This document shows, piece by piece, positions 2,337 to 64,000 of a DNA stretch of 64,000 nt. The notes beneath the pieces were generated by a model. The model ran no database searches. It was not told the DNA's origin and saw nothing but the letters and a program-made list of their open reading frames with translations. Both the position numbers and the translations under genes were made by a program. Within the stretch, counting starts at the first letter, position 1. The number at the start of each line of letters is the position of its first letter. The stretch is taken from contig CAWGHH010000002.1 of assembly GCA_963822405.1 (NCBI GenBank), positions 266,766-330,765 on the forward strand. The letters are read 5' to 3'. This DNA is from Candidatus Uhrbacteria bacterium (GTDB taxonomy: Bacteria > Patescibacteriota > Patescibacteriia > UBA9934).

Positions 2337-2342
2337 TTAAGA

Positions 2343-2379: not shown

Positions 2380-2389
2380 TGACGTGGAC

Positions 2390-2728: not shown

Positions 2729-2869
2729 ACCCCCTCTAGTTGAGAAGGCCTACAATGAGGTTACAATAGGCGGACTAACTGGGCAACCCGGTGGCTCTAA
2801 ACGAAAAAGCCCCCAGTACGGACGTATCCGTACAAGGGCCTCTTTCATAGTGATGGTAGGATACCATAC

Positions 2870-2985
2870 AGTTTTGTCATTGCGAGGGATCTCCGTAGCT
2901 TCGAGCGAAGGAGATGCCCGAAGCAACCTCACGAGATTGCTTCGACTCAAACGATTACGTTTGGTCTCGCAAAGACTGAAATACT
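2870..2985 (+). repeat. Structured interspersed repeat, copy A (cloverleaf-like, about 110 nt)
   Basis: gtcattgcgagggatctccgtagcttcgagcgaaggagatgcccgaagcaacctcacgagattgcttcgac...tggtctcgcaaagac. Near-identical to 14676-14783 except the third hairpin. Terminal inverted repeat gtcattgcgag / ctcgcaaagac. Ends 17 nt before the uvrD start. Confidence 0.6.
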
Positions 2986-3001
2986 AATCACCAGCAATTG
3001 T

Positions 3002-10968: not shown

Positions 10969-11045
10969 CCTGGGGCATAATGGTTCCATAACGCGAAACC
11001 ACTTGAGCCGACTCTGTTGGCGGTGGGCGCGTCTTTTCTTCATTT

Positions 11046-11507
11046 ATGGAAAACCACGCTACGTACATTTCTGCAACCGGGCTGGCTGATATCACTAAGG
11101 AACTGGCCCAGCGAATCAAAGTAACCAGACCAGAAATTGCCCAGCGTATTAGTGAGGCTAAAGAAATGGGCGATCTATCAGAAAACTTTGCGTATCATGA
11201 AGCCCGTGAACAGCAAGGTTTGAATGAAAGCCGAATTATTGAAATCACTGACATCCTGTCTACGGCTGTTGTAGTCGAAGAAAAGAAAGGCGGCAGTATT
11301 GGTCTTGGTTCATCCTTCAAGGTAAAGATCGATGGCAAAGAAAAGACATATGAGGTTGTTGGCGAAAATGAGGCCAACCCAATGGAGGGAAAAATCAGCA
11401 ATGTTTCACCGCTTGGTAGTGCTTTTCTTGGTAAGGGCGTAGGCGAGATCGTAGAAGCCAAAGTTCCTTCCGGCACCATGACGTACGAAATTATTTCTAT
11501 TGAATAA
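11046..11507 (+). CDS. greA: Transcription elongation factor GreA
   Basis: 153 aa. GDLSENFAYHEAREQQ coiled-coil finger and C-terminal FKBP-like domain. Confidence 0.9.
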   Translation: MENHATYISATGLADITKELAQRIKVTRPEIAQRISEAKEMGDLSENFAYHEAREQQGLNESRIIEITDILSTAVVVEEKKGGSIGLGSSFKVKIDGKEKTYEVVGENEANPMEGKISNVSPLGSAFLGKGVGEIVEAKVPSGTMTYEIISIE

Positions 11508-11511
11508 GTGT

Positions 11512-13002
11512 ATGACCCGCGAAGAACAAGACCGGCTTACTCGGTTACAGTCTCTTGCGACGAATAACGTGAACGCCTATCCGGATAACGCCGGACGAAC
11601 ACACTTAGTGGCTGACGCTCTAGCATCTTTCGAGTCACTCGAAAAATCCGAAGAGACCATTGTGGTCTGTGGTCGAGCCATGGCCATTCGGGATATCGGC
11701 GCGCTGTCATTTCTCAAATTACAGGACGACTCTGGCGTGATGCAGGTGGTTCTTCGTAAGGCTGACCTTGAGGCTGACTACAGTTTCTTTTTGTCACATG
11801 CTGACGTTGGTGACATTCTTGAAGCTAAGGGTCGGGCGTATGTGACGAAGACGGGCGAAAAGTCCGTCTTGGTAACTTCGATCAGAATTTTGTCCAAAGC
11901 TCTAAAACCGTTGCCAGAAAAGTGGCACGGTTTGTCTGACGTTGAAACCCGCTACCGCGAACGCGAGCTTGATCTAATCGTAAACCCGGCGGTTCGGGAA
12001 CGTTTCCGTATCCGCTCAAAGATCGTCTCTGGAATGCGCGCTTTCTTAGATACTAGAGGATTCCTGGAGGTTGAAACACCAATGTTGCAACCTATTCCTG
12101 GTGGCGCAAATGCTCGTCCGTTCGTTACGCATCACAACGCGCTCGGGGCAGATTTATTTCTACGCATCGCTCCTGAGCTCTACTTGAAGCGTTTGGTGGT
12201 TGGTGGCTTCGAAAAGATTTACGAAATCGGTCGTTGTTTCCGTAATGAAGGAATTGATTACTCGCACAATCCAGAATTCACCATGCTTGAGCTCTATTGG
12301 GCTTATGTCAATAAGGACGCATTCATTTCGTTCATGGAAGAATTGCTGGTGACAGTGATTGCCGAAAGTCTCGGCACATTAAAAGTCACGACGAGTGAAG
12401 AAGGAAGATCGATTGATTTCACTGGTCCGTGGCCACGTAAAACTTTTCGCGAAGCAATCTTGGAAGCTTGCGGAATTGATATTGACGAACTAGCTACGGT
12501 TGCCGATGTAAAGGCTGCAGTCAAAGCGAAGAAAGTTAAAGTAGATTTCGCAAAGTGCGTTGGCCTCGGTGAACACTTGGACGAGCTCTGGAAGAAAACT
12601 GCTCGACCAAAGATTACGAATCCAGTTTGGATTTTTGACTACCCGGTCGATCTCAAGCCACTCGCAAAAACTCATCCAGTCGACAAAACAAAAAGCTCAA
12701 CTGTTCAATTAGTAATTGAAGGCGCCGAAGTTATTAACGCGTATTATCACGAGCTTAATGATCCGATTGACCAACGTGCTCGGTTCGTCGCTCAGGAAAC
12801 TTTGCGTGAGCAGGGAAGTGAGGAGGCTCAACACTTGGACGAGGCATTCCTGTCGGCCCTTGAACACGCCATGCCACCAACGAGTGGTTTTGGCATCGGT
12901 ATTGATCGATTCATCGCTTTCTTGACCGGTGTGCCAAACTTAAAAGAAGTTATTCTGTTCCCAACTCTTAAACCGGACACCGGACAACGGAAACCGGAAT
13001 AA
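11512..13002 (+). CDS. lysS: Lysine--tRNA ligase (class II)
   Basis: OB-fold N-terminus. Class II motifs FLEVETPML, FRNEGIDYSHNPEFTMLELYWAY, GFGIGIDR. The track ORF begins at TTG 11500; ATG 11512 is preferred. Confidence 0.95.
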   Translation: MTREEQDRLTRLQSLATNNVNAYPDNAGRTHLVADALASFESLEKSEETIVVCGRAMAIRDIGALSFLKLQDDSGVMQVVLRKADLEADYSFFLSHADVGDILEAKGRAYVTKTGEKSVLVTSIRILSKALKPLPEKWHGLSDVETRYRERELDLIVNPAVRERFRIRSKIVSGMRAFLDTRGFLEVETPMLQPIPGGANARPFVTHHNALGADLFLRIAPELYLKRLVVGGFEKIYEIGRCFRNEGIDYSHNPEFTMLELYWAYVNKDAFISFMEELLVTVIAESLGTLKVTTSEEGRSIDFTGPWPRKTFREAILEACGIDIDELATVADVKAAVKAKKVKVDFAKCVGLGEHLDELWKKTARPKITNPVWIFDYPVDLKPLAKTHPVDKTKSSTVQLVIEGAEVINAYYHELNDPIDQRARFVAQETLREQGSEEAQHLDEAFLSALEHAMPPTSGFGIGIDRFIAFLTGVPNLKEVILFPTLKPDTGQRKPE

Positions 13003-14675: not shown

Positions 14676-14783
14676 AGTCATTGCGAGGGATCTCCGTAGC
14701 TTTGAGCAAAGGAGATGCCCGAAGCAACCTCACGAGATTGCTTCGACCCAGCTGGATACAGCTGGTCTCGCAAAGACGGAAAA
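14676..14783 (+). repeat. Structured interspersed repeat, copy B
   Basis: gtcattgcgagggatctccgtagctttgagcaaaggagatgcccgaagcaacctcacgagattgcttcgacccagctggatacagctggtctcgcaaagac. Fills the serS-alr intergenic region and ends 4 nt before the alr ATG. Confidence 0.6.
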
Positions 14784-17759: not shown

Positions 17760-18160
17760 GTATGAATACTGATCCGTAAACAATTCTCCGATCAAATGTA
17801 AAAACACGAAAAACATAGATAGCTCCAAACTGTCAGCGAACGCTCGTACGACAAAACTTCATATACATAGAGAGTGGGGGATTTGAGTTTGAACGGTAAC
17901 TCGGATCGCCACGGCTATATTGACCATGATTGACTATGTTGCGTGGCGTCGCACAATATATCTTCTACGACGCATGTGTGTTAAAACTATTGAATACACT
18001 CACTAGTCGTATCACAACATCCTTACCAACATATCAACCAAGCAACATTCCCTGTACACAGTAACTGCTCGACAAACGAATTACTTTACTCGTTATCTAT
18101 ACAGATCCGGGTCTTTTCGCGAAGCAATCATCAGTCGATATACATAACGACCAAAATACC

Positions 18161-36259: not shown

Positions 36260-36520
36260 GTGCCCGTGTTCCTCACTAGCCATCCAGCGTTCAATAACGC
36301 CCTCATCGTCCTCAGCGCTTTTGGATTCTTTGGAGTCGGACTCGTGGACTTTGCCGTCCAGGTTTCCTATTGCGCGGAAATCGCCAAAACGATTCAAGCC
36401 GCTGATCGCGAAAAAAAGATCGATTCTCTGAAAACCACGCGCCTGGTTCTCCAGATATTCTGTCTCATATGCGGTTACGCCCTCTTTTCCCTCATCATCA
36501 CCTCGTCCGGGGTGAAGTGA
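36260..36520 (+). CDS. Possible small membrane protein, 86 aa
   Basis: GTG-start track ORF with two hydrophobic segments. Weak support. Confidence 0.2.
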   Translation: MPVFLTSHPAFNNALIVLSAFGFFGVGLVDFAVQVSYCAEIAKTIQAADREKKIDSLKTTRLVLQIFCLICGYALFSLIITSSGVK

Positions 36521-38126
36521 CCAACTTGCCGAGCCCCGCCTGCCCAACACGAATCCCGGGTAGCACGTGCTCGGTTTTCGTTTTCTCGCGTTTTGATTCG
36601 TCGAAGGAGAGGAAGATCAGAGGAAGAAGTAACAACGAAATTCCCAGAGGGTGATTCAAGTAAGGCGTGAAGATGTGAACTGTTAGGACGAAAATCGACG
36701 AACAAAACAACCCGACCACTATCCAACTATCGTCGAGTCCTTTTCGTAAATGCGACAGAGTCGCGTTAGCAAAAGACAGGCCGATGAGAAGGACACCGAG
36801 TAACCCGAGAACGCCGGTTTTCAACCAAAGATCCTGATAGCCCCATTCAAAACGATAGGTCGTCCACTCGCCAGTGCCGTTAATGGCCCGGACTCGAGGG
36901 TCATCAGATATAAAAGTAACTTCTTTCCCAAATCCCGACCCAATAATCGGCGACTTCATTATCTCCGTCATCATTGGTGGCAAAAGATTCCAGCGGCTCG
37001 ACACAGCCAGGTTTCGATCCTGACCGGCGTCGGACTTATAAAACGCAGACTGCGTGAAGTCTGGTCGGAAAGGTAGAGGGAAGATAATTGTGAGCCAGAC
37101 GAACACTACGCTCGCGACGATGCCCACGAATAATACTGACTTCCTTCTAACCCGTTCCCAAAGTTGTTTAGGTTGCCAGAGAGAATACACGATAAGAATC
37201 GCCCCCGCTGGTAGCGCAGCAATCACGAAACTCCGCGACAAACCGGCAAGCAAGGCCGACAGACATAGCGCAAGAATAGCCGAACCAAGTAGTTTTTCTT
37301 TTAAGGTTGTTTGAACAGACACGACGCCGGATAGAAATAGAATAAAAAATGACGCAATGACGATCTGACTCTGACCGAATACTCGGAAATACCATGCCCC
37401 ATTCGGGAACAACACGGCCATTTTTGCCGGCGCGGTCAGCAAAGTGATCTCGAACAGTCGTGCATCGCGCACGAACGTGTACACGTGTGCGAGGACTTTC
37501 CCTGGCAAGTGCGTGAACGCGAACATGAGACCGAGGGTCGTCGCTGATACCCACACTGCTGACACCGCGAGTGTCATGAGCATGAGACGCTTCTTCTCAT
37601 TGTCCCATTTGATCGACAAAATCGGCAACGCGTAGAGAATCGGCAAATAAGAATTGAAATCGTCGAACGCGTTTCCTTTGTTGTTCTGCAAAAAGCCGAC
37701 CAAGCCACCTAGCAAAACGGCTAGTCCAAAAACCACCCACGGAATGTCCCGTCGCGGGCTCCATTGCCATGCAGTCATCCTGAGCCCGTTTGACGGGCGA
37801 AGGATCTGAATGGTAAAGGCAACCATCACTCCCAAAAAAATCGCAATACGAACAGACAACGGCACGCCAATCGACGACAGATCAAACAAGTGTCCGTGCC
37901 CGCCAACGAAGATCTCGAGAAACGCAAAGGCAATGCCCCACTCAAGTCGTTTCATCGACAAAACAAACGCCACGATCCCAGCTGCTGCAACTGGCACAAT
38001 CGACACCCACGAATGCTGCACCAACGCCGCCAAAATATGCGCGACGAGTAGTCCCGCGAGCACGTACCACGAATTTTTGTCGAAGAATTGTTTGATCATA
38101 AAATTACCAAGATCCTCCCCCACCAC
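36498..38126 (-). CDS. O-antigen ligase/polymerase-like (Wzy_C-type) polytopic membrane protein
   Basis: 542 aa with at least 10 TM helices and a large extracytoplasmic loop. Sits next to the glycosyltransferase/flippase locus. Contains an embedded palindromic repeat (see findings). Confidence 0.55.
   Translation of the reverse strand: MVGEDLGNFMIKQFFDKNSWYVLAGLLVAHILAALVQHSWVSIVPVAAAGIVAFVLSMKRLEWGIAFAFLEIFVGGHGHLFDLSSIGVPLSVRIAIFLGVMVAFTIQILRPSNGLRMTAWQWSPRRDIPWVVFGLAVLLGGLVGFLQNNKGNAFDDFNSYLPILYALPILSIKWDNEKKRLMLMTLAVSAVWVSATTLGLMFAFTHLPGKVLAHVYTFVRDARLFEITLLTAPAKMAVLFPNGAWYFRVFGQSQIVIASFFILFLSGVVSVQTTLKEKLLGSAILALCLSALLAGLSRSFVIAALPAGAILIVYSLWQPKQLWERVRRKSVLFVGIVASVVFVWLTIIFPLPFRPDFTQSAFYKSDAGQDRNLAVSSRWNLLPPMMTEIMKSPIIGSGFGKEVTFISDDPRVRAINGTGEWTTYRFEWGYQDLWLKTGVLGLLGVLLIGLSFANATLSHLRKGLDDSWIVVGLFCSSIFVLTVHIFTPYLNHPLGISLLLLPLIFLSFDESKREKTKTEHVLPGIRVGQAGLGKLVTSPRTR
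37774..37813. repeat. Short palindromic repeat embedded in-frame in the O-antigen-ligase-like gene
   Basis: gtcatcctgagc-ccgtttgacggg-cgaaggatctgaatgg. Shares gtcatcctgagc and gcgaaggatctga with 42451-42483 and the gtcat..gag / gcgaagga core with the 110-nt repeat family. Confidence 0.5.
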
Positions 38127-39807
38127 CGCCCGAACCTCCTCCCGATGATCCTCCTGACATTCCGCTTGAATGTGGAGTGGCGGCTGTCACAGCCTGGCTA
38201 AAAGCGCCATTAAACTGTTGGAGATTCGTAATTAATAATGTACTTGAAAATGCGTGATTCGACTGGTCTTCGTACCAACTGGGTGTAGATTGATACAGTC
38301 CTTCAAACTTCTTCGCCCACTGACTTTCTACGCCAAGTGCCATGGCGAATGGCAAGAATTTCTCGAACGTCTCTGGCTCTAACTTTGGTGCATTCAGCAA
38401 CTCGAGCTTATCCTTTTCGGTTAGCTGTAAGAATTCCTTGAATCCCGCAATATCCGCCTGTGCCTGCGTTCCTTTAGGAGTGAATTGCTTGGCCATCTTA
38501 GCTGCTCCGGCCATTCGAATGATGATATAAATGATCCCCGGGAAGGCTAGGACGACTCCAAGCCCACTAGTGATAATTGATAATGCGAACGCTCCAAAAA
38601 TAACAGCCACTAAGGCAATCGCTAATTTTGTGACAAGTTTATCAGCTGCCTCCTTTGAGGCCTTATCGTAATATCCCTGGTCTCGAAGATAATCATCAGT
38701 TTCTGTTTTCACCCGCTCAATCTCTTCATGAAAAGTATCTTTGTCCTCTAGTAACGCGCTCAACGAAACCGCCTTCCCTCCCCCAAAAAATAAATTCCAA
38801 ATAATTTTTTCCCCTGGATGCTTGAGCGCGGATCCATCCTTCAGCTGAACAAATTCAAAATCTTTTTTATCGGGCCAAAACTTAATTACTTGGACAGTGT
38901 ATTTAATCTTGATGTAACCGCGAACGGCTAAATCTAAAATAACTGAAGAAATATCTTTTGTATCAACTGATTGGTCGAGTATTGCCCCAACATCAAGCGG
39001 AGTCAGTCCCTTCGGTGGCTGATACTGTGTCACGACCGGTCCTCGGTAACCCTGCTTCTTAAATACTCTTGATAAAACAGTAACAATCATGGTGATGATG
39101 ATGACAACAAAGAACAACGGAACCAACAGAAACAACCAATCGCCTCCAGACAAGGTAACGTCAGACGAAGAGCCAGAATCAGCATTCGCAACTACCGTGT
39201 CATTAACAATACCAAGCGGAATGCTCGCTGCAATCGTCAAACCTTCGCCAACGTCTAGCGCCTTTGTCGTATGGTAACCGGCTCCCCCTAAGTTATAACC
39301 GAAAGTACAGTTCCGTTCTGTGCTCCCCTGCGCGCCGGTATAACAGTTCATGTCAATCTTCGTCTCTTGGCCGGGTACAATCACCATCGCTTCTGCTTTT
39401 TCGATCGGTACCTGCCAACCATTACCAGTCACGTTCCAGTACAACTCGTCATGATCTTCGAATGGTCGAATTACATTCGTAACCGTGTAATCGATAACAT
39501 AAGTGTGCAACCCACTGATAGTTTCGTTTGCATCCCCAATTTTAATGTCGAGGTTTCCATTGTTCGTAGACTCGACGTAATGATAGGCTCGACCATTCTC
39601 ATCCTTCACGCTATTAACGGTTATGCCGATGTCTGGACCGTCGACGGCAGAGAGCGGGATATCGCGAAAAATTCCGTGTCTTTGATTATCGCTAAAATTA
39701 TAATTGATTCTTTCGTTCACCCCAACCGAGCCATTCTCGTTCAAGGTAATAGTCGAGTAGAAACTATCAATCTTTTCAAGTGACATATTACTTTTCGAAA
39801 GAAACAT
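38104..39807 (-). CDS. DUF2207-family membrane protein (LemA partner) with C-terminal Gly/Ser tail
   Basis: 567 aa. N-terminal extracytoplasmic domain, TM helices, C-terminal GMSGGSSGGGSGGGGGGSW. Directly downstream of and overlapping lemA. Confidence 0.7.
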   Translation of the reverse strand: MFLSKSNMSLEKIDSFYSTITLNENGSVGVNERINYNFSDNQRHGIFRDIPLSAVDGPDIGITVNSVKDENGRAYHYVESTNNGNLDIKIGDANETISGLHTYVIDYTVTNVIRPFEDHDELYWNVTGNGWQVPIEKAEAMVIVPGQETKIDMNCYTGAQGSTERNCTFGYNLGGAGYHTTKALDVGEGLTIAASIPLGIVNDTVVANADSGSSSDVTLSGGDWLFLLVPLFFVVIIITMIVTVLSRVFKKQGYRGPVVTQYQPPKGLTPLDVGAILDQSVDTKDISSVILDLAVRGYIKIKYTVQVIKFWPDKKDFEFVQLKDGSALKHPGEKIIWNLFFGGGKAVSLSALLEDKDTFHEEIERVKTETDDYLRDQGYYDKASKEAADKLVTKLAIALVAVIFGAFALSIITSGLGVVLAFPGIIYIIIRMAGAAKMAKQFTPKGTQAQADIAGFKEFLQLTEKDKLELLNAPKLEPETFEKFLPFAMALGVESQWAKKFEGLYQSTPSWYEDQSNHAFSSTLLITNLQQFNGAFSQAVTAATPHSSGMSGGSSGGGSGGGGGGSW

Positions 39808-40396
39808 TTACTACTTCTTTTTCTTTCTCGTCTGCACCAAAAAACTCGAGCCTAGTGAAACCGAGCATCGGGGCAATAAGGTTCGACGGAAAGACTTGAA
39901 CCGCATTGTTCATCTCACGAACGGTCGCGTTGTAATAGCGTCGAGCAGATTGAATGTCATCTTCGAGCGTCACCAGTTGAGCTTGAAGTTGCTTAAAGTT
40001 TTCTGACGCCTTAAGCTCGGGATACGCCTCAGCCACCGCAAAGAAGCTCTTGAGAGCACCTGAAAGCGCCGTTTCTGCCACCGCTCGGGCAGCTACCCCG
40101 CCTCGCTCAACACTAATAGCCGCCATACGCGCCTTCGTCACCTCCTCAAGCACTGTCGCCTCATGTTGCTGGTATCCTTTCACAGTTTCGACAAGGTTCG
40201 GCACCAAATCATAACGTCTTTTTAACTGTACATCTATATCTGACAACGCATTCTTTGCTCGATTATTATTACTAACTAGTCCATTAAAAATGTACACAAC
40301 ACCGCCAATAACTCCAACGACGATCAGTAATATTAATAGAGGCATATATTGAGTGTTAATTTCGCTTAAGCCAAGCAGAAACGTAGGCGAGAACAA
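39788..40396 (-). CDS. lemA: LemA family protein
   Basis: 202 aa. N-terminal TM. LemA motifs LKRRYDLVPNLVETVKGYQQHE and ENFKQLQAQLVTLEDDIQSARRYYN. Confidence 0.85.
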   Translation of the reverse strand: MFSPTFLLGLSEINTQYMPLLILLIVVGVIGGVVYIFNGLVSNNNRAKNALSDIDVQLKRRYDLVPNLVETVKGYQQHEATVLEEVTKARMAAISVERGGVAARAVAETALSGALKSFFAVAEAYPELKASENFKQLQAQLVTLEDDIQSARRYYNATVREMNNAVQVFPSNLIAPMLGFTRLEFFGADEKEKEVVNVSFEK

Positions 40397-41222
40397 TAAA
40401 CTTTGGAGTACATGCCCAAAGTATAAGCCACGGAATAAGCCCGTGATGCTTTTTCATATACTTGCGTAAACTAGTGCGAATCCATTTCTGCTTTCTGATC
40501 GTCGCCACTTTATTAAAACTGTGGCCTTTGTGATGAATAACCTCGCAGTCACCATATGATCGAACTTTGAACCCAGCGTCGACCGTCATTTTGCAATAAT
40601 CTACCTCCTCAAACCAAATGAAATATCGCTCGTCGAGCAAGCCAATCTTATCCATGACTTCGCGACGAATAACCATAAACGCGCCCATGATGGAATCAAC
40701 ATCCTGCGTTTTCAACGGATCGACATCCCGCATCATGTATTTGTCGACGGCTTTCAAATGCTTGAACACGTGCGGCAACTTGAACAATATTTCGAGCTGA
40801 TCGACGAGCGTCGGGAAGCGACGAATACTCTCCTGGTGTGAACCATCGGGATAGCGAATAACACAACTACCAATGCCAACTTCTTTATCAGCATCGAGGT
40901 GATCAATCATGCGCTGCATAACCCCCGGCGGGACAATCGCATCCGGGTTCAAGAGCAGGGCGTAGCGACCGGTCGTCTGCTTGAGACCAACATTAACCGC
41001 AGCGGCAAACCCTCTATTCTGCTCGTTCACAATCACTTGCGCCTCGGGCAAAATTTCATGTACAAAACTTGGCATCTTCTTGTCGTTCGCGTTATCTACA
41101 ACTACTACATCAAAATTCACATCATGCGCTGCTGCCAAACTCATAAAACATGCCCGCAAAACTTCGGGGTCTGTCTTGTAGGTAACGATCACTATTGTTA
41201 CGTCTCTTAGTTCAGTGTTCAT
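40356..41222 (-). CDS. Glycosyltransferase family 2
   Basis: VTIVIVTYKTD..., VVVVDNANDK, NRGFAAAVN, DxD in LLNPDAIV. Confidence 0.8.
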   Translation of the reverse strand: MNTELRDVTIVIVTYKTDPEVLRACFMSLAAAHDVNFDVVVVDNANDKKMPSFVHEILPEAQVIVNEQNRGFAAAVNVGLKQTTGRYALLLNPDAIVPPGVMQRMIDHLDADKEVGIGSCVIRYPDGSHQESIRRFPTLVDQLEILFKLPHVFKHLKAVDKYMMRDVDPLKTQDVDSIMGAFMVIRREVMDKIGLLDERYFIWFEEVDYCKMTVDAGFKVRSYGDCEVIHHKGHSFNKVATIRKQKWIRTSLRKYMKKHHGLIPWLILWACTPKFIVLAYVSAWLKRN

Positions 41223-41926
41223 AGATGATGTTTCTCTGCAATTATCTCACGCGCTGCCTCATATTTCTTAATGCTCACCGGTTTCCATGGCGACAACCTC
41301 CACGGCAATTGATAGGCCAGTTTAGGCAACCAGGTCGAGCCGATTCTTGACTCCCCGTGAATACCAACGTGGAATAACACTTCTGGCACAAGGACGCCAA
41401 CCTTTCCACGCTCGAGCATCGTTAACCACACATCCCAATCTTGTAGTCGCTTAATGGCATTGTCGAATCCTGGAAAATCAGCTCGACGAACAAGCGAAGT
41501 AGTATGCACGAAGTTCATCTTCTTGAGTTTATCTACGTTAAACGTCGTACCCCAAAAAGTCTTCCAACCAAACGTAAAACCGGAATACGCATAGCTCGAT
41601 TCCGGATGCGCATCAAGTAACTTCGCCATCTTCTCAAGCATTTCTTTCTCCATGATCACATCCGCGTCGACGAAAATTACGAACTCCCCCTTCGCCTCCT
41701 TGAATCCCCTATTTCTCGCCGGGTTAGATCCTTGGTTCTCTTGCTTAATAGAAATTATCTTTCCCTCGTACTTCTTCAGAACCTCCTGCGTATTATCCGT
41801 CGAGCCATCATCAACCACGATCACCTCGATGGGGCTGTATGTCTGCGCAAAAACCGAATCCAAACAAGCCGAGATAGAATCGGCGTGTTGAAACGTAGGA
41901 ATGATAACGGAAATCATTGATTGCAT
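41219..41926 (-). CDS. Glycosyltransferase family 2
   Basis: ISVIIPTFQHADSI, VIVVDDGSTDNT, NPARNRGFKEAKGEFVIFVDADV. Confidence 0.8.
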   Translation of the reverse strand: MQSMISVIIPTFQHADSISACLDSVFAQTYSPIEVIVVDDGSTDNTQEVLKKYEGKIISIKQENQGSNPARNRGFKEAKGEFVIFVDADVIMEKEMLEKMAKLLDAHPESSYAYSGFTFGWKTFWGTTFNVDKLKKMNFVHTTSLVRRADFPGFDNAIKRLQDWDVWLTMLERGKVGVLVPEVLFHVGIHGESRIGSTWLPKLAYQLPWRLSPWKPVSIKKYEAAREIIAEKHHL

Positions 41927-43026
41927 ATTTCCTTTAGTTTTCCCATCTGCTCTTCTCTCGTAAACTGCTCAAGCACTCGCACTCTCCCCCGCGAACCCAT
42001 GGAGGCGCGCAGTTCAGGGCTGTCAATGAGTATCTGCAAGCCCTTCACAAGGTCATCGGTAGTGTCATCGACGAGCACGCCCGTCTTGCCGTCTACTATC
42101 GCTTCAGCCACTCCCCCGGTGCGTGTACCAACGACAGGGAGGCCGAACAGATTCGCTTCGAGGTACACGATACCAAACCCTTCACGATCAATACTCGATT
42201 GCGTGGTCGGCATGACAAAAATATCTGCGTCAGCGTAAATTTCAGGCAAGGTTAAGTCATCAGCATCCGTAATCATCGTTACGCGCTCTCCGAGTCCAAG
42301 CTCAATGATCTTCGCCTTAATCTTCTCTTTCATTGGCCCGTCACCTACGATCGTGTATTTCGTATTCGACAGCTTAGTCATCGCGTCGAGCACCTTCAAA
42401 TGCCCCTTACGCTCTACAAGCCGGGCGACGGTCAATAACGTTACGTGTTTGTCATCCTGAGCAGAGCGAAGGATCTGATTGGTTGGCACAGGGAGGCCAA
42501 TCGCCCCAGCCGCCAGTTTCGCCAAATCCCTCAAATCAGTCCATCCTTTTCCCTTCCTCACTCCCTTTGACGCCTCAACTAACGCATCCGCCACCGGCGG
42601 ATATATGCATAGTACGGGCCGACTTCTATGTCGGCCCTCTCTCAGGCTCTCGACCTCACTTTTCAATGCCTCCGAATTTACTACAACCGCCTCCGCTCCC
42701 CTCAGGATTCTCCCGGTCAACCACCTCTTCCACGCATTTCTCCTCGCCAAATCAAAATCCATGCCGTGCAAAAATATCACGTAAGGCTTTGATCCCATCA
42801 TCTTTGCTAACCACGCCACAGTTCCTACTGGCAAAATCTCATGTATAAAATACAGATCTGTCACTTGATTACTCTGCCAAAAAATCGGAAAAATTAATTC
42901 ATAACTTGGTCGAGCAATCCGTTCAATAGCAACAGACGGATAAGTCAAAACAATCGCGTCAATATACCGCGCAATACCGCCACGAGCACCCTCTTTTTGA
43001 AGTGTTGGAATAGCTACTCGTTTCAT
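41914..43026 (-). CDS. Glycosyltransferase family 4 (GT-B)
   Basis: 370 aa. C-terminal EGFGIVYLEANLFGLPVVGTRTGG (E-x7-E motif region). A repeat-derived QILRSAQDDK segment lies between the two Rossmann halves. Confidence 0.85.
   Translation of the reverse strand: MKRVAIPTLQKEGARGGIARYIDAIVLTYPSVAIERIARPSYELIFPIFWQSNQVTDLYFIHEILPVGTVAWLAKMMGSKPYVIFLHGMDFDLARRNAWKRWLTGRILRGAEAVVVNSEALKSEVESLREGRHRSRPVLCIYPPVADALVEASKGVRKGKGWTDLRDLAKLAAGAIGLPVPTNQILRSAQDDKHVTLLTVARLVERKGHLKVLDAMTKLSNTKYTIVGDGPMKEKIKAKIIELGLGERVTMITDADDLTLPEIYADADIFVMPTTQSSIDREGFGIVYLEANLFGLPVVGTRTGGVAEAIVDGKTGVLVDDTTDDLVKGLQILIDSPELRASMGSRGRVRVLEQFTREEQMGKLKEICNQ
42451..42483. repeat. Short palindromic repeat embedded in-frame in the GT4 glycosyltransferase gene
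   Basis: gtcatcctgagcagagcgaaggatctgattgg. Encodes QILRSAQDDK in the inter-domain linker on the minus strand. Confidence 0.5.
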
Positions 43027-49028: not shown

Positions 49029-50006
49029 TCAAGAAACACGGTGGATAGCGAATTCAACGATCTTCTTGGCTACGTCTAGCCCCGTTACCCGTTCTAGCTC
49101 CTTAAACCCAGGATTTGCGTTCACCTCCATTATTAGCGGTCCACGATTTGATCGAAGTATATCAACGCCGGCAATATCAAGTTTCATCGCCTGCGTTGCC
49201 TGAAGCGCAAGCTTGCGCTCTTCGTCGGTAAGTTCCGCTTGCTGTTCGGTCCCGTCTGGACTGCCGTTACTTCTAACCTCGCCAGACGCGGCATCGAACC
49301 GAATAGCTGCAACCACATCTTCGCCCACCACAAATGCTCGAACCGTCGATCTATTCGCTTCGTTAATGAACTCCTCGACCAGCACCGGATTACCGTCTCT
49401 AACTGCAAGATAATCTGCTATAGGAAAAAGAGTCTCTTTATTTTCAACGTAAAAAACTCCCGTACCCTTTGCTCCAAAAGCTACCTTCAACATGACAGGA
49501 TAGCCAATTACGTTCGCGGCCTCCACACAAGCCTTATAACCAAAAGCTATAGACCAATGAGGAATTGAAATGTTTGCAACGTGCAAGACGGCTCGCTGTA
49601 GAAGTTTATTCTTTGTTCTCAATATCCCTTCCCCACCATTCACCAGTTTGTATCCGGCCGTTTTTAATAAATCGTAAACAGCCTGATGCTGAGAGGGCTC
49701 CTCAATAAAATTCGCTCGAACAATAATCACATCAATCTCACCTAACGCAACCCCATCATTAAAAACAGCCACTGTGCCTTTTTGCTCTTCAAATCTTAAA
49801 TGTCCCTCTAACAATCTTACAGATTCATGCCCTAGCCCCAAAATAGCCTCTTCTAATCTTAAGGTCGAACTCAAAGCCCCAGTCGTCTCAACAGAATTCA
49901 AAATCCCGACGCGCATATGGTCTAACCGTAGCGCATCGGGATACTGTTTGGCAATAAGTGAGTTACTCGAGTTCAGGACATTGGAATTCTGGAACCTTGC
50001 CTCCAC
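49029..50006 (-). CDS. rimK: RimK-family ATP-grasp alpha-L-glutamate ligase
   Basis: C-terminal half closely follows E. coli RimK ([14 protein letters not shown]..., [22 protein letters not shown]). Overlaps the upstream gene by 44 nt. Confidence 0.8.
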
Positions 50007-50598
50007 TCGGAGTAGCCGATTTCACACCAACATCCTTCGTGCCGGCGTTGAAAATATACGAGTAAGGTCGCACAGCTTCTGTGAAGGCCGAATGATCGAT
50101 ATCCGTGCCCAACGCTGCATACTTCTGCAAAACAGCCGAAAGACCATGCGCTGCATTCACCGTAAGGAGATAAGGCTCGCTTAATTTGTCATCTTCCAAA
50201 AGAGCAATAAGTTGATTGAACTTTGTGTCCTGTTTCTTGATGAACGCGTAGTCCTCAGCAAATGTTGGTGCACTCTCCGCATCTCCTCTCATGAAAAAAC
50301 CATTAAACATGCCCTCGATATCGACAATCAAACACATCGCATCATTACTCACGAAGGCTGATGGATATGCATAATTTGAAGTGTCAGCCTGATTGTTCTT
50401 TGCGATTCCAGCATTAAGCGCTGCGATGACGGATGCGGAAAGTGGCTTGTTAGATCCCAACTCACGAGCAATGTCTGCACTCGTAACAGCATGCGGAATC
50501 TGACTCGCCACAAGTAATGACCCGAAGGCTAGACCAACAACCGAACCAAGCAACATGCCCGGAATAAAGTGGGCGAGGAAATGAGATTTTGATTCCAT
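49963..50598 (-). CDS. Signal-anchored extracytoplasmic protein, 211 aa (paralogous N-terminus with next gene)
   Basis: MESKSHFLAHFIPGMLLGSVVGLAFGSLLVASQIPH, then a non-repetitive domain. N-terminal 36 aa is near-identical to that of 50600-51412. Confidence 0.5.
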   Translation of the reverse strand: MESKSHFLAHFIPGMLLGSVVGLAFGSLLVASQIPHAVTSADIARELGSNKPLSASVIAALNAGIAKNNQADTSNYAYPSAFVSNDAMCLIVDIEGMFNGFFMRGDAESAPTFAEDYAFIKKQDTKFNQLIALLEDDKLSEPYLLTVNAAHGLSAVLQKYAALGTDIDHSAFTEAVRPYSYIFNAGTKDVGVKSATPSGGKVPEFQCPELE

Positions 50599-50599
50599 A

Positions 50600-51412
50600 T
50601 TAATTCATCATGCTAGCCTCAACGTCCACGGTCTCATTGTCCGTCCAACCGTTCATCATCCAGGCCTCGCCAAAAGAAGTGTGAATAGGGCCGTCGCCTT
50701 TATAGCCACCAAATGTCCTGGTCTTCATGTCGAAGATCCACAAAATACCTCGTTCTGACATGGCGTTACCAAGAGCAGCTACAACGGCGATCTTAGAACC
50801 GTCAGGTGAGAACTTAGCGTCGAACTGCGTGTAATGCTGATCCGGGAGAGCGTATGTTTGAACATCGTTCGCGTCATCAATCGCTCGAATCTGCAACGAG
50901 ATCGTCGGTCCGATATCTTGGAAAAACTGTGCCAAGTATTTTTCGTCCGGGGAAATGTCGAGCCCCTGGCGAATACCCCCCTGTCCGAAAGTCGGATCAA
51001 GCAGTCGATCAACCTTACCAGTACAAGTATTCACTCGAATCATGTCATATGTCACTGGATACAAAATGTAACCGCCAAGGCCATCTGGATTAAAATCAAG
51101 ATAGGCATTTATAGAAGCAGAATTAACTTGATAAAAGTTCCCAGCATTAAAGAGACCGTTCGGAAAATCTACTTCAGAAATTTTCTTGTCCTTCAAATAT
51201 ATACCAAAGTTGTGTTCGTCGAGAGCCTTCCAGGAAAGATCCTTAAACGAACCAACACAATCACTCGTCACAGCACCACCTTGCGCCAACTGCTTGGTTG
51301 CAGAATGTGGAATCTGACTCGCTACAAGCAACGAACCAAACGCGAGACCAACAACTGAACCGAGAAGAATGCCGGGAATAAAGTGAACGAGAAAATGGGA
51401 TTTGGATTGCAT
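50600..51412 (-). CDS. Signal-anchored protein with WD40-like (TolB-type) beta-propeller repeats
   Basis: MQSKSHFLVHFIPGILLGSVVGLAFGSLLVASQIPH anchor. Repeats DISPDEKYLAQFF and FSPDGSKIAVVAALG typical of TolB-like propellers. Confidence 0.55.
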   Translation of the reverse strand: MQSKSHFLVHFIPGILLGSVVGLAFGSLLVASQIPHSATKQLAQGGAVTSDCVGSFKDLSWKALDEHNFGIYLKDKKISEVDFPNGLFNAGNFYQVNSASINAYLDFNPDGLGGYILYPVTYDMIRVNTCTGKVDRLLDPTFGQGGIRQGLDISPDEKYLAQFFQDIGPTISLQIRAIDDANDVQTYALPDQHYTQFDAKFSPDGSKIAVVAALGNAMSERGILWIFDMKTRTFGGYKGDGPIHTSFGEAWMMNGWTDNETVDVEASMMN

Positions 51413-51500
51413 ATACTAGGAAGTATACACGATCCAATATCCCATTTTTAGGCCTTTCGCCTACGCTCAAGGACTTTATGTGCACCATCTCATTCAAATA

Positions 51501-58287: not shown

Positions 58288-59439
58288 ATGAAATGTCCTA
58301 ATCCCGAACGTTGCGGCTCTTGTGGCTGGTCTCATATCTCCTACGAGAAACAGCTCAAGCAAAAGCTCTCTGATATCAACGGTTCTTTTGCCATTAAAAA
58401 ATTAGATTTGAAGGTCGAGGAAATCGCCGCCTCTCCTATCACCCATCACTACCGTAATCGAATGGATTTTGTAATTGATTGGCAGGGCAACGTCGGCCTG
58501 CGTGAAAAGGGCAAGTGGTGGAGCGTGATCGACAATCATCCTTGTTTCATTGCTGACCAAAAAATCGAAGACGCGTTTTTCATCACCCGCGACTGGGCAA
58601 AGAAATGTGGTCTATCGTTCTGCGACCGAAAAGCTAACACTGGGTTCTTGCGCTACGCCGTCATTCGTTCAACGACTCTCGGCGAAACCATGATCATCAT
58701 CGTCACCAGCGCACCAAAGGATGCGGACGAAGAAGCAGCCGCCAAAAAAGCGCTCGAGGAATTAACTGTCTTATCGAAAGCAACCACGGTGGTCTGGTCA
58801 ATCAACCACACCATTAGCGATGTATCGTTCGGCGACGAACTTAGAACCATCTCTGGTCCTGGTGTTATCGAGGAAACAATTGCCGGTTATCGCTACAAGA
58901 TCTCTCCAAACGCGTTCTTCCAAACCAACCCACACGGTGCGGCGCAATTATTGGATACTGTTCGCGAATACGCGACCAGTGGGTCGACAGAGACGTCGAC
59001 CCCTACATCGGAACAAACGTTATTGGATCTCTACTGCGGAACTGGGTTCTTCGCTGTTGCCCTGGCCGCCTCATTCAAGAAAACAATCGGCGTAGAAATG
59101 GTCAAGGAAGCGATCGTGGACGCTAAAGTCAACGCAGAATTGAACAATGCAATGGTCGAGTTTCACGACGTAAAAACCGAAGACTTCGACTGGATGAAAA
59201 TTGGTGCTGACGTTGTCATCCTTGATCCACCACGTGGTGGCATGGTGGACAAAGCCCTCCAGGATATAATTGCCGCCAAGCCCGAAACCATTGTCTACGT
59301 CTCCTGTAACTACAAAAACTTCGCCCGCGAAATGGTGATCCTGCAAAAGTACTACGACGTCGAAGCCATGCGAGCTATAGACATGTTCCCCCACACGCCA
59401 CATGTGGAGCTGGTAACTAAGCTTGTGCGTAAGGTCTAG
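58288..59439 (+). CDS. 23S rRNA (uracil-5)-methyltransferase RlmD/RumA family
   Basis: Start MKCPNPERCGSCGW (Fe-S Cys cluster). SAM motifs LLDLYCGTGFF and ILDPPRGG. Contains a repeat-derived SGSTETSTPTSEQ insert. Confidence 0.8.
   Translation: MKCPNPERCGSCGWSHISYEKQLKQKLSDINGSFAIKKLDLKVEEIAASPITHHYRNRMDFVIDWQGNVGLREKGKWWSVIDNHPCFIADQKIEDAFFITRDWAKKCGLSFCDRKANTGFLRYAVIRSTTLGETMIIIVTSAPKDADEEAAAKKALEELTVLSKATTVVWSINHTISDVSFGDELRTISGPGVIEETIAGYRYKISPNAFFQTNPHGAAQLLDTVREYATSGSTETSTPTSEQTLLDLYCGTGFFAVALAASFKKTIGVEMVKEAIVDAKVNAELNNAMVEFHDVKTEDFDWMKIGADVVILDPPRGGMVDKALQDIIAAKPETIVYVSCNYKNFAREMVILQKYYDVEAMRAIDMFPHTPHVELVTKLVRKV
58980..59011. repeat. GGGTCGAC-hairpin repeat, copy inside rlmD coding sequence
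   Basis: tgggtcgacagagacgtcgacccctacatcgg, versus tgggtcgacagaggcgtcgacccctactctg at 61040-61070 (28/31 identical). Internal 8-bp palindrome GGGTCGAC/GTCGACCC. Confidence 0.6.
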
Positions 59440-59450
59440 CCTCTCGGCGT

Positions 59451-59581
59451 AAGGGTTTGGCTCGCCCGTAGGGCTACGCCCGAGGGCGCCGCCAAACCCT
59501 TAACACCAAAACCCCGGAGTAAAATCCGGGGTTTTGGTTTGTAAATAGAAAAACCCCCCTCGGCGTATGCTCAGAGGGGGG
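59451..59581. terminator. Cluster of three strong hairpins (terminators for convergent rlmD and uppS)
   Basis: 11-bp stem aagggtttggc/gccaaaccctt enclosing two GC hairpins. aaaaccccgga-gtaaaa-tccggggtttt. cccccctc-ggcgtatgctca-gagggggg. Confidence 0.6.
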
Positions 59582-61039: not shown

Positions 61040-61070
61040 TGGGTCGACAGAGGCGTCGACCCCTACTCTG
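61040..61070. repeat. GGGTCGAC-hairpin repeat, copy in the uppS 5' leader
   Basis: See 58980-59011. Lies 1-2 nt upstream of the uppS track start. Confidence 0.6.
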
Positions 61071-61074
61071 AAAA

Positions 61075-61938
61075 CTAGGAATTCATCGCAGCTTCCATCG
61101 CGCTTGCGCGGGAGACGGACAACTTGCGGTAGGCCAAAGCGTAAGATAGGAAACCACCAATAGATACAAGAACCATCCAACAGAACAAGGCAACTCCAAG
61201 AATCAAACCTACAAGACCCATGAGAATTACACCAATTGTAGCCATCTTCATCAAAGCGAGAACGCCCATGAGCATGACGACGACACCGAAAATTTCGTAG
61301 GCTGGCAAAATTGCAATGTAAGCAATGAGTGCAATAGCTGCAGAAAGAAGAGCGATGCTCAAGAGATCGCCGTTCGTTAGAGCCCAGCTAGCCTTAAGAG
61401 CTTGCACTGGGCCAACGTCTTTTCTGTCCACGATGGTGAAGAGAGCAAAAGTACAGCCAAGACCAATCATGATGCCTGGGATAACAAGGACTACGAGACC
61501 AACGGCTACCGCTACGAGATACAAAACGTAAGTCAAAATAGCCACGCCAATCAACTTACCGTCAAAAGCAAAAATCTCATTGATCGAGAGCTTCTTACCG
61601 TCTACTACGGCTAGAGACAAACGAATCGCGCCAACACCAACCGCCAAAGAGAATAAAACCAGCAACACGAATGACAACATGCTAACGAGCCATCCCGGAA
61701 GAATTGCTCCGAGGATAGCTGAAACGATCACGATTGCCAGGAAACCAGCACAAGTTACAATAACGAATTTTACGAACTGACCCCATGTCTTAACCGCTAG
61801 CTCAACACCCTGAGTTGCGAGCTGTCCCGGTGAAAGTGTCTCGGCCTGTTTCCAGGTAAAATTCATGTTCATAGAAATCATTAAAGATTTGCTATAGTTT
61901 ACTACAGATTCTGGTGAGTCGCAACCAAAGTTGTACAA
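61075..61938 (-). CDS. Polytopic membrane protein, unknown function
   Basis: 287 aa, about 6 TM helices. Confidence 0.45.
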   Translation of the reverse strand: MYNFGCDSPESVVNYSKSLMISMNMNFTWKQAETLSPGQLATQGVELAVKTWGQFVKFVIVTCAGFLAIVIVSAILGAILPGWLVSMLSFVLLVLFSLAVGVGAIRLSLAVVDGKKLSINEIFAFDGKLIGVAILTYVLYLVAVAVGLVVLVIPGIMIGLGCTFALFTIVDRKDVGPVQALKASWALTNGDLLSIALLSAAIALIAYIAILPAYEIFGVVVMLMGVLALMKMATIGVILMGLVGLILGVALFCWMVLVSIGGFLSYALAYRKLSVSRASAMEAAMNS

Positions 61939-61970
61939 AACTCAAATCTTCTGTATCATCTAGCCCTTAT

Positions 61971-62822
61971 ATGAAATCTGGATTCGTCGCTATCATTGGC
62001 CGTTCTAACGTGGGTAAATCCACGCTTCTTAACGCGCTCGTAGGTTCTAAGGTGGCCATCACTACCCCAAAGCCTCAAACTACCCGTCAGCCTATTCAAG
62101 GCGTTATCTCTTCCCCTCGTGGTCAGGCTGTTATGGTTGATACCCCAGGTATCATGCAGAAAGCTCGTGACCAGCTAACCAAACGTCTTCTCCAGTACGC
62201 TAAAGATTCGCTAAAAGAAGTAGATGCGATCTTGTACGTTGTGGATCCAACTCGTGCGGTAGGCGACGAAGAAAAACAAGCTTTCAAATTAATTGAACAC
62301 GCTACCCAACCAAAACTTTTAGTCATTAACAAAGTTGATGACAAGGACGCTCGTAGATATATTGACTACTATCGTGACTTAGCAAAACAGTTTGACGCTT
62401 ACGCTGAAGTTTCAGCCAAAGCTGGAACGGACATGGACATGGTGAAGAACTGGATCTTTGATCAGCTCCCAGAAGGCGAATACATGTACCCTGAGTTCCA
62501 AGTAACAAACCAAAGCAATGAAACCTGGATGGCCGAGCTCATCCGCGAAAAATTGTTCTTGCGTCTGCGTGAAGAAGTTCCATACTCTACTCACGTAGAA
62601 GTCAACGAAATCACAACTCGCAAAGATGGCACTGTTTATGTGAACGCCACCATCTTTACCAGCGCTGAACGCTATAAGCCGATGATCATTGGTGCCGGTG
62701 GACGTGGCATTAAAGAAATTGGCCAATCAACTCGCCGGGAACTTGAGGCCGTAGGCAACAAGAAGTATTTCCTGGACCTACATGTAGAAGTTGATCCGCA
62801 GTGGTTTGATAAGATCACGTAG
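61971..62822 (+). CDS. era: GTPase Era
   Basis: MKSGFVAIIGRSNVGKSTLLN (G1), DTPG (G3), NKVD (G4), C-terminal KH domain. The track ORF starts upstream at 61914. Confidence 0.9.
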   Translation: MKSGFVAIIGRSNVGKSTLLNALVGSKVAITTPKPQTTRQPIQGVISSPRGQAVMVDTPGIMQKARDQLTKRLLQYAKDSLKEVDAILYVVDPTRAVGDEEKQAFKLIEHATQPKLLVINKVDDKDARRYIDYYRDLAKQFDAYAEVSAKAGTDMDMVKNWIFDQLPEGEYMYPEFQVTNQSNETWMAELIREKLFLRLREEVPYSTHVEVNEITTRKDGTVYVNATIFTSAERYKPMIIGAGGRGIKEIGQSTRRELEAVGNKKYFLDLHVEVDPQWFDKIT

Positions 62823-62823
62823 C

Positions 62824-62906
62824 AAAACAAAACAGTCAGTACTGCTTCGGAAATGGAGTCGGATTACCTCCTGGCATTTCCTCAGCAGTACTGACTGTTT
62901 TGTTTT
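62824..62906. terminator. 22-bp perfect inverted repeat (bidirectional terminator) between era and a convergent lipoprotein gene
   Basis: aaaacaaaacagtcagtactgc ... gcagtactgactgttttgtttt, with a 39-nt loop containing a nested ggaaatg/catttcc pair. A/T runs on both sides. Confidence 0.7.
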
Positions 62907-62909
62907 ACC

Positions 62910-63824
62910 TTATTCCACGAGTTCATTCGGCCGTTGCATTGTGACGCTCGTGATTGAATAACCAAGATCATTTTTAAGCTCGGATAGTGACGTGAACATC
63001 CCTGGACCAAGTGCCCATGGCAATAACGCAACCTTTAAGATAATCGGATTATCAGAGTTAGCTAGAATCGTATAGTTCGCGAAAGCGTTCGAAGCCTCGA
63101 TCGTTTTAACTTGAACGTCTACCCTATTTATTTTTAAATCATAACTCCCCCAATCGCCCTTAGCCGTTAATTTTGTAAAATCTTTATTAGTTGTTGGCGA
63201 GTCTGCAATCTTCCCCTGGAGTTTATCAAGTGCTGACTTGGCCGAGTCAGTGAAATCTAGCGCGTCCTTCAGTGTAGAGTCGAACAGCCCTAATTGGACG
63301 TGAGACGAACGAGTTGCGACCAACTCATCATACTGAGCCTTTGACAACCAAATTATACTGTCACTGGTTTGAGATACATCGTACTCATCTTCCGGCCAGT
63401 ATGATGGCAACAACAGACGTTCTGCGTTGCCGAGCGCATCGGTTCGAACCACTCCCTTGAGCGTCACTTGTTCATATACTGGCTCAGGAATTTTTGTCGC
63501 CTCACCCACTGGTGAATGAGTCATGGCGTATTCTCTGGCCGTTTTGCTGGCAGAAGTTTCTCGTTTCACATCCATCATCCAAGAAAGAACCGCAAAAACT
63601 CCAGCTTGGTGTTCTTCAACAGTAACATTCTTGACGGACGGCGCGTCACCAAGACCAAAAGAAAATGCGCTCTGAGAAATAGCGAATGAGTCGCCAACCA
63701 TTAAATCCAGCTTCTCAGCATCAAACTCTGGTAACTTTTCACCAAACGGCAAAGATACACATCCAGCGCCTAGGAAAAGCGGGGTTAACAACCCCGCCAT
63801 AGCGAGAATGAGTCGAGATCGCAT
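62910..63824 (-). CDS. Lipoprotein, unknown function
   Basis: Start MRSRLILAMAGLLTPLFLGAGCVS (lipobox). The track ORF extends upstream to 63926 across the preceding stop context. Confidence 0.5.
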   Translation of the reverse strand: MRSRLILAMAGLLTPLFLGAGCVSLPFGEKLPEFDAEKLDLMVGDSFAISQSAFSFGLGDAPSVKNVTVEEHQAGVFAVLSWMMDVKRETSASKTAREYAMTHSPVGEATKIPEPVYEQVTLKGVVRTDALGNAERLLLPSYWPEDEYDVSQTSDSIIWLSKAQYDELVATRSSHVQLGLFDSTLKDALDFTDSAKSALDKLQGKIADSPTTNKDFTKLTAKGDWGSYDLKINRVDVQVKTIEASNAFANYTILANSDNPIILKVALLPWALGPGMFTSLSELKNDLGYSITSVTMQRPNELVE

Positions 63825-63825
63825 A

Positions 63826-64000
63826 TTATTTCTTGCCGCTAGCCCATTCCATGATTTTTTCTTTGTTCGCTGATCCGCAGATGAATGCGTCTGTTTCCGT
63901 ATTGTGAAAAAATGGAACCCCGCCACATCTACCCTCGTCTACTGCTTCTAGCTTTTTCAAGTTATCCGCGTTATTCCAAACCTCGAGCTTTTCGATCTTC
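63826..64000 (-). CDS. Thioredoxin/glutaredoxin-like small protein, partial (N-terminus beyond window)
   Basis: Minus-strand ...KIEKLEVWNNADNLKKLEAVDEGRCGGVPFFHNTETDAFICGSANKEKIMEWASGKK-stop. GGVPxF...G pattern resembles the glutaredoxin C-terminal half. Confidence 0.3.
   Translation of the reverse strand, partial: KIEKLEVWNNADNLKKLEAVDEGRCGGVPFFHNTETDAFICGSANKEKIMEWASGKK

Follow-up and report, generated by a model that had tools for sequence, protein, structure and literature searches.

Small hairpin-forming repeats that reside within genes are known from Rickettsia and a few other bacteria. The Rickettsia palindromic elements (RPE) lie in frame in unrelated genes at sites compatible with the protein fold, and also between genes (PMC10969869, summarising Ogata et al. 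2000/2002); they are about 100-150 bp long, Rickettsia-specific and mostly intragenic, and are reported to end in CGTC (PMC3733652). [quoted passage not shown] On a smaller scale, the GCGNAGC DNA mini-hairpin has been described as a structural motif (PMC13037366). Here we describe two short repeat units lying in frame within two cell-envelope genes of a Candidatus Uhrbacteria bacterium, in a 64,000-nt stretch of contig CAWGHH010000002.1 (positions 266,766 to 330,765), referred to below as the window. They extend in-gene hairpin repeats to the reduced genomes of the Patescibacteria (Candidate Phyla Radiation, CPR), and are probably single arms of an interspersed repeat that is small and modular and forms hairpins. 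The two units and their host genes are as follows.

37774 to 37813, plus strand: repeat unit copy 1, CCT type, with an 11-nt self-complementary centre CCGTTTGACGG and the lineage extension TCTGAATGG, inside the ligase gene.
42451 to 42483, plus strand: repeat unit copy 2, CCT type, with the 3-nt centre AGA and the extension TCTGATTGG, inside the GT4 gene.
36498 to 38126, minus strand: host gene 1, an O-antigen-ligase (WaaL/Wzy_C)-like polytopic membrane protein, assigned from homologues and a fold match.
41914 to 43026, minus strand: host gene 2, a glycosyltransferase of family 4 (GT4) with a GT-B fold of two Rossmann-like halves, assigned from Pfam and an AlphaFold model.

The pattern GTCATCCTGAGC–centre–GCGAAGGATCTGA(A/T)TGG occurs exactly twice in the window, as GTCATCCTGAGC-ccgtttgacgg-GCGAAGGATCTGAATGG in copy 1 (40 nt) and as GTCATCCTGAGC-aga-GCGAAGGATCTGATTGG in copy 2 (33 nt), and its exact 12-mer and 13-mer halves are found at these two sites only. 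The 12 plus 16 or 17 bases that the copies have in common, in the same order and on the same strand, are far beyond chance, with approximately 1e-6 such pairs expected by our estimate. Copy 1 is translated in the minus-strand open reading frame (ORF) 36498-38126 as TIQILRPSNGLRMTAW / TIQILRPSNGLRMT (amino acids 105-118), and copy 2 in the minus-strand ORF 41914-43026 as TNQILRSAQDDKHV (amino acids 182-193), or TNQILRSAQDDK (amino acids 182-192/193). The left halves of the two copies share one reading frame (QILR), and the right halves are read in different frames, LRMT in copy 1 and AQDD in copy 2, because the centres differ in length by 8 nt. Both of these frames are stop-free; the third frame of the right half would contain TGA. 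A preliminary description of this DNA, made from the letters alone, had given the repeat sequences, their positions, the uninterrupted ORFs and the encoded peptides, and a scan and translation of the window reproduces all of them. Copy 1 forms a significant hairpin (-15.3 kcal/mol, z -4.3, with none of 200 shuffles as stable).

Collecting further copies reveals a unit that can be written (T)GTCAT-N3-GAGC – centre – GCGA-N3'-ATC(T), in which N3 pairs with N3' and the usual centre is either a GNA triloop or a separate short hairpin. Centres of 3 nt are the commonest (94 of 144 units) and are GNA in 75 of those 94, so that GAGC-GNA-GCGA comprises a GCGNAGC mini-hairpin with flanking tandem G·A, inside the ATCCT/AGGAT stem. 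The edges of the unit are sharp, with T at position -1 in 80% and T at +1 in 82% and random sequence farther out; the base preceding GTC in 285 units is T in 80% and C in 16%, and the window copies read aGTC and tGTC. An inverted partner is present within 150 nt for 116 of 303 units (38%), and the resulting pairs are 70-100-nt hairpins bounded by GTCAT...ATGAC, with a median length of 83 nt for the full element; solitary arms are the commonest form. Using a relaxed pattern (GTCAT-N3-GAG[CG]...[GC]CGA-N3'-AT), we found N3 and N3' fully paired in 74 of the 85 units whose stem is unlike that of the search pattern, as compared with a mean of 37 and a maximum of 45 when partners were shuffled (500 to 1000 shuffles). 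The stem types found include TCT/AGA, TCC/GGA, CCC/GGG, GCT/AGC, CTC/GAG and others. The family is a modular hairpin whose core is invariant and whose stem co-varies.

The motif recurs abundantly outside the window. Exact-pattern scans returned the unit in 110 stretches of viral contigs and, among the matches listed, in at least 120 stretches of species-representative genomes; the longer, extended arm was present in 28 metagenome stretches that vary in GC content, several of which are unrelated and have the CCGTYYGACGG centre seen in the ligase copy. The genomes with the unit, again among the matches listed, represent all of the major bacterial phyla sampled; they include the Chloroflexota, Acidobacteriota, Saccharibacteria and Komeilibacteria (both CPR), Bacillota, Bacteroidota (including a cultured Hymenobacter), Planctomycetota, Omnitrophota, Gemmatimonadota, Nitrospirota, Cyanobacteria, and Alpha-, Gamma- and Deltaproteobacteria. 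Copies lie mostly between genes, and intragenic copies are the exception, since only about 8% of units (in low-GC loci) are deep inside ORFs of at least 200 amino acids. No name or description of the family was found in the literature searched, and nothing relevant was found there on palindromic repeats in CPR bacteria; literature matches to the DNA strings of the unit are primer or vector coincidences, such as GTCATTCTGAG in bla/pUC sequences. A resemblance to hammerhead ribozymes (CUGA...GAA) was rejected by inspection, the G8/A9 core positions being absent.

Two arrangements on viral contigs were noted in passing. At the end of one (L059, 8595-8969; L numbers denote the fetched loci and P numbers proteins) there are five full elements head to tail with an 87-nt period, each composed of a CCT-type arm and an inverted TCT-type arm. 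Four others (L031, L060, L073 and L074) each contain two direct units exactly 2037 nt apart, beside TAGTCCC heptamer repeats of cyanobacterial style, and share an ORF just inside this interval, which could be a unit-bounded cassette.

The two host genes belong to a single minus-strand glycan operon, which in order of transcription comprises genes for a flippase, GT4, two family 2 glycosyltransferases (GT2), LemA, DUF2207 and the ligase. We compared the window with the syntenic loci of six related genomes. In the spacer that separates the GT2 stop from the LemA start, L001, L002 and L004 contain a 70-85-nt GTCAT...ATGAC element (-35 to -43 kcal/mol), and the same site is empty in the window, L006 and L007; comparison of filled and empty sites gives no sign of a target-site duplication. 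Further related elements occupy the GT2|GT2 spacers of the relatives, and the window lacks a full element in the spacers of this operon. The inverted arms of these full elements are 25-35 nt long, with GTCAT...ATGAC ends, and have ...GGATCTGAATGG-loop-CCAATCAGATCC... at the centre. The in-gene copies of the window correspond to single 3' arms in sense orientation, because they share the TCTGA(A/T)TGG extension of the relatives' elements. The family appears to have been gained and lost in the spacers of an envelope-glycan operon within this patescibacterial clade.

For the ligase, the proposal that the repeat is a lineage-specific insertion is clearly borne out by an alignment of 24 orthologues, in which the segment is confined to a small clade. 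QILRPS[ND]GLRMT is present in the window protein, P0122 (88% identical), P0124 (69%) and P0125 (65%), and P0121 is also listed as a carrier; it amounts to a net gain of five amino acids, and the other 19 aligned orthologues are without it and have a shorter loop of constant length. In L001, L004 and L005 the unit occupies the same codons as in the window. Its nucleotides are 87-95% identical between orthologues as compared with 63-66% for the remainder of the gene; synonymous codons agree in 64-91% of cases inside the unit and in 41-46% outside it. The inner stem contains a compensated pair, CGC..GGG in the window and L004 versus CGT..GGA in L001 and L005.

The GT4 copy has a less simple history. 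It lies in an interdomain linker that is hypervariable in both length and sequence across the family, and the nearest orthologues (70-75% identical) have linkers of the same length and different sequence, such that the unit adds no net length relative to them. In the 58%-identical orthologues of L004 and L007, however, the same unit with the rare AGA centre is at the same position as in the window. In this gene, for which a lineage-specific insertion had also been suggested, the unit is thus an old or recurrent occupant of the linker. The window has the stem ATCCT/AGGAT, for which L004 and L007 have ATCTC/GAGAT; these four compensating substitutions exchange L for S and Q for R in the protein. 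By hand count the unit is identical at 31 of 36 positions between the window and L004 and at 29 of 36 between the window and L007 (81-86%), and the rest of the gene is 61-62% identical. Because the compensated stem changes alter residues and the identity of the unit exceeds that of the rest of the gene, a constraint or a homogenising process appears to act on base pairing and not on the peptide; judging from these alignments, it is the nucleic-acid hairpin that is conserved.

Other sequences were seen in the same linker. In L002 (GT4 gene 2309-3424) the position of the unit is taken by a perfect, unrelated palindrome, CCCCCTCC-TTCGAAA-GGAGGGGG, which encodes PPPSKGGG, and the linkers of L001 and L006 look like decayed versions of it, suggesting that a second palindrome family uses the same site. 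In L004 (GT4 gene 2657-3853) the end of the unit, CGAGATGACAGAATGGGT, is repeated about three times in tandem at 3218-3300, an 18-nt expansion giving (RDDRMG)n in a 398-residue GT4, as though the unit had seeded a microsatellite-like lengthening of the linker.

The identities of the host genes proposed earlier, an O-antigen-ligase-like protein and a GT4 enzyme, hold. The GT4 ORF matches Glycos_transf_1 (residues 189-348) and Glyco_trans_4 (57-128) in Pfam. The ligase ORF has no Pfam match of its own; its homologues carry PF04932 or an O-antigen ligase name, and the sole significant match of its AlphaFold model in the PDB is WaaL (7tpg, E 1.9e-4). The mechanical ORF start of the ligase gene may lie a few codons upstream of the true one. 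In the GT4 model, which has a mean predicted local distance difference test score (pLDDT) of 87, the only long low-confidence coil is residues 177-191 (pLDDT<50), between the last helix of the N-terminal domain and the first strand of the C-terminal domain, and this is the place of the unit. In the ligase model (mean pLDDT 83) the segment comprises the end of helix 91-108 and the next loop, a block with a pLDDT of 61. Both segments are thus predicted to lie in structurally permissive sites, a disordered interdomain linker in GT4 and a loop following a transmembrane helix in the ligase.

In-gene copies are not restricted to these two proteins or to this operon. A GT4 homologue (P0095, in L238) has a full element of about 98 nt in its N-terminal domain, and in two further members of the GT4 family, P0119 and P0029, the linker that holds the window copy contains peptides of the unit type. 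The preliminary description foresaw peptide segments added to surface-glycan enzymes, but any restriction to that class is contradicted by L261, in which a gene for a 606-residue ATP-citrate-lyase-like protein (10503-12323, minus strand) has an in-frame element (…GQSDPSPVKQAQDD…) exactly at a domain boundary, between a CoA-ligase domain (169-311) and a citrate-synthase domain (339-597). The in-gene units of the ligase and GT4 genes recur in independent assemblies from JGI, NCBI, ENA and Logan.

The window also contains two full, intergenic members of the family.

2876 to 2976, plus strand: full TGC-type element, an inverted pair of units, 25 nt upstream of the ATG at 3002.
14677 to 14777, plus strand: the other copy of the full TGC-type element, lying after the stop at 14668 and before the ATG at 14789.

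In each, GTCAT-TGC-GAGG ... CGAAGCAAyCTC precedes a second unit in reverse complement, and each is closed by GTCATTGCGAG/CTCGCAAAGAC; the first folds into three hairpins (-28.8 kcal/mol, z -6.1) and the second is of similar stability (-31.2 kcal/mol, z -7.0). The in-gene copies had been grouped with a '110-nt structured repeat' in one family, and this grouping stands, the latter being the inverted TGC-type pair and GTCATTGCGAG being approximately 25-fold enriched in loci fetched solely because they contain a CCT-type unit. Rfam has no gathering-level match in the window, and at E<=1 or E<=10 the 110-nt element and eight loci containing full elements gave generic hairpin or miRNA-like matches only. 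The two full elements are 87% identical and have wholly different third hairpins, CAAACGATTACGTTTG and CAGCTGGATACAGCTG, each self-complementary, which suggests that centre modules are swapped or regenerated as hairpins. A 17-mer, CTTTTCGCGAAGCAATC, that contains the TGC-type 3' half CGAAGCAATC is common to 12443-12459 (inside ORF 11500-13002) and 18113-18129 (intergenic); these may be solitary remnants, but a single shared 17-mer is near chance (about 0.5 expected by estimate).

Several further repeats in the window are of other kinds. A different palindromic repeat, TGGGTCGACAGAG(A/G)CGTCGACCCCTAC, has two copies (58980-59006 and 61040-61066) that are 96% identical. Inverted repeats at 62824-62906 (32-nt arms, 94% complementary, between the convergent ORFs 61914-62822 on the plus strand and 62910-63926 on the minus strand) and at 59450-59502 (25-nt arms) resemble terminators or hairpin elements of other kinds. 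A 114-nt direct repeat, 82% identical, at 50487-50600 and 51301-51414 falls in the adjacent ORFs 49963-50598 and 50600-51412, which are probably tandem paralogous genes.

The interpretation that we favour is that the in-gene copies probably represent a REP/MITE-like element tolerated in permissive loops, one that is RPE-like in behaviour without being an RPE. The family would behave as a non-autonomous element of the REP/MITE type that twice became coding sequence in this clade, with in-gene copies persisting only where the frame stays open, the TGA-containing frame is avoided and the site is structurally permissive; such copies would be translated as short hydrophilic filler peptides. Spread would most likely occur through single-stranded hairpin DNA handled in trans by an HUH/Y1-transposase-like enzyme, or by template switching or gene conversion between copies. 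These routes fit because there is no target duplication, the ends are sharp, single-arm copies occur and two events replaced sequence, and gene conversion would explain why those two events replaced sequence instead of adding length. A tendency of units to flank a particular cassette gene (a four-helix-bundle / 23S intervening-sequence protein, or a transposase) was considered and rejected, as the neighbouring ORFs of 237 loci formed only phage structural-gene clusters from related contigs.

Several observations weigh against this interpretation. When 1469 neighbouring ORFs from 237 loci were clustered, no transposase or other common family was enriched, and no parent insertion sequence with the same ends was seen in approximately 1.9 Mb of fetched loci, in a non-exhaustive search. 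The single Y1 transposase gene seen encodes a 168-residue IS200-like protein (PF01797, E 1.2e-9, with HVH and YYE motifs) at 2743-3249 on the minus strand of L238, adjoining the GT4 homologue with the full in-frame element. Its flanks (2400-2740) hold a different hairpin, with a 14-bp stem and GTAG, together with ACGTCTCACCACGTC tandem repeats and an assembly gap, and a tblastn search of the window and of the rest of the fetched DNA gave no homologue of this transposase. Neither a target duplication nor an excision footprint was seen, and the window has just two in-gene copies and two full elements in 64 kb. One ligase orthologue, P0123 (75% identical), has no segment and is of exactly the ancestral length, yet is nested among the carriers in a neighbour-joining tree without support values, implying precise loss, recombination or several independent gains. 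The preliminary description called both units palindromic, which is only partly true: copy 2 has no more than a 5-bp ATCCT/AGGAT stem and folds no better than shuffles (z -0.5). Finally, a purely selfish repeat would not usually show near-identity across phyla together with nucleotide conservation above that of its host genes; these features fit a functional structure at least as well.

Such a structure is the most serious of the competing explanations, although we regard it as rather unlikely. It supposes that the unit acts in cis, as an RNA hairpin in the segmental stability or processing of polycistronic mRNA, in translational pausing at domain boundaries, or as a hairpin signal in single-stranded DNA, and is kept by selection, which is compatible with a mobile origin. 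The invariant core and co-varying stem across phyla are as expected, as are compensatory changes that override the amino acid sequence, units that are more conserved than the synonymous sites of the host gene, elements between co-directional genes of one operon in all of the relatives, and in-gene copies at domain boundaries; the commonest centre, GC-GNA-GC, is moreover a very stable DNA mini-hairpin also found at phage replication and priming origins (PMC13037366). However, close relatives whose operon is the same in other respects differ freely in whether orthologous sites are empty or filled, wobble pairs favour neither strand (in a small sample, by inspection), neither window copy has the canonical GNA centre and copy 2 hardly folds, the Rfam searches gave only the generic matches, even at E<=1 or E<=10, and no common neighbour gene or position rule was found. 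A broader version, in which the unit is a near-universal bacterial structured module recognised by a widely conserved host or phage factor, is a little more doubtful still. The features it would rest on are observed (the invariant GAGC-GNA-GCGA core, the tandem G·A, the co-varying 5-bp stem and the (T)GTC tag), and such a module could serve as an mRNA processing or stability signal or as a priming or recombination signal in single-stranded DNA; that selection would keep its pairing even inside open reading frames seems to us an equally tentative proposition.

It is very improbable that the peptides themselves (QILRSAQDDK and QILRPSNGLRMT) are domesticated modules kept for enzyme function or localisation. 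In the ligase clade the segments have stayed in frame while the proteins diverged by roughly 35%, and this and the QILR start common to both proteins would be in keeping with such a role, but the right halves of the two copies use different reading frames, GT4 orthologues swap residues while keeping the base pairing, the closest GT4 orthologues have unrelated sequence there, the GT4 segment is predicted to be disordered, and one nested ligase orthologue and all of the distant ones are without the segment. Chance similarity, ancestral coding sequence or an assembly artefact is effectively refuted. Either half alone, with two mismatches allowed, is no rarer in the window than in shuffled sequence, and the GT4 copy is common to 58%-identical orthologues; against this, 29 bases are shared in the same order at these two sites only, hundreds of unrelated contigs contain the same unit, none of the other 19 aligned orthologues has the ligase insert, and the occurrence of in-gene units in independently made assemblies argues against an artefact.

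In enzymes of envelope glycans, different palindromes repeatedly occupy and re-occupy the interdomain linkers and membrane-protein loops, and such occupancy is a cheap source of variation in protein length and sequence. The units also yield spurious 'hypothetical proteins' (…LRMT…, …AQDD…, …ARND…) and can mislead calls of domain boundaries and orthology. The in-frame copies are instructive but unsurprising, and the more intriguing observation is an unnamed, structurally constrained family that crosses phyla. Its conservation may result from mobilising machinery held in common, from horizontal transfer at high frequency or from a genuine function, and these possibilities are testable.

The mobile repeat that we favour shares features with each of the described systems. 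The commonest centre of the family, GAGC-GNA-GCGA, contains exactly the GCGNAGC mini-hairpin, but the latter is a motif and not a repeat family, and the window copies have AGA and 11-nt hairpin centres. The cyanobacterial small dispersed repeats of Elhai et al. 2008 are said to be very short hairpins that appear to replace host sequence of equal length, also inside genes; they resemble the present units in this replacement, which is seen in the GT4 linker and partly in the ligase, and differ in having another consensus and being specific to cyanobacteria. MITEs are similarly small, non-autonomous and strain-variable in presence, with terminal inverted repeats, locations in operon spacers and occasional in-frame fusion to ORFs, but here neither a target-site duplication nor, in the fetched loci, a parent insertion sequence with matching ends was seen, and solitary arms are the commonest form. 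The likeness to REP/REPIN extends to 20-40-nt imperfect palindromes with a short unpaired end tag and stem mismatches, no target duplication, frequent inverted doublets, and a mostly extragenic location with occasional copies inside genes; the tag here is (T)GTC and not GTAG or CGTC, no flanking RAYT was found in the 237 loci, and the unit is conserved letter for letter across phyla, whereas REP families are normally species- or genus-specific. The differences from RPE are in the host (Patescibacteria, and Uhrbacteria-like by the names of the closest homologues), in size (in-gene arms of 33-40 nt and full elements of about 70-100 nt), in the many phyla and mostly intergenic locations, and in an end tag of (T)GTC instead of CGTC, a distinction drawn from published descriptions. 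The comparison with RPE made in the preliminary description consequently does not extend to membership, but it is apt for behaviour: as with RPE, the units lie in frame in unrelated genes as well as between genes, and are translated as extra peptide in permissive loops that the protein fold can accommodate.

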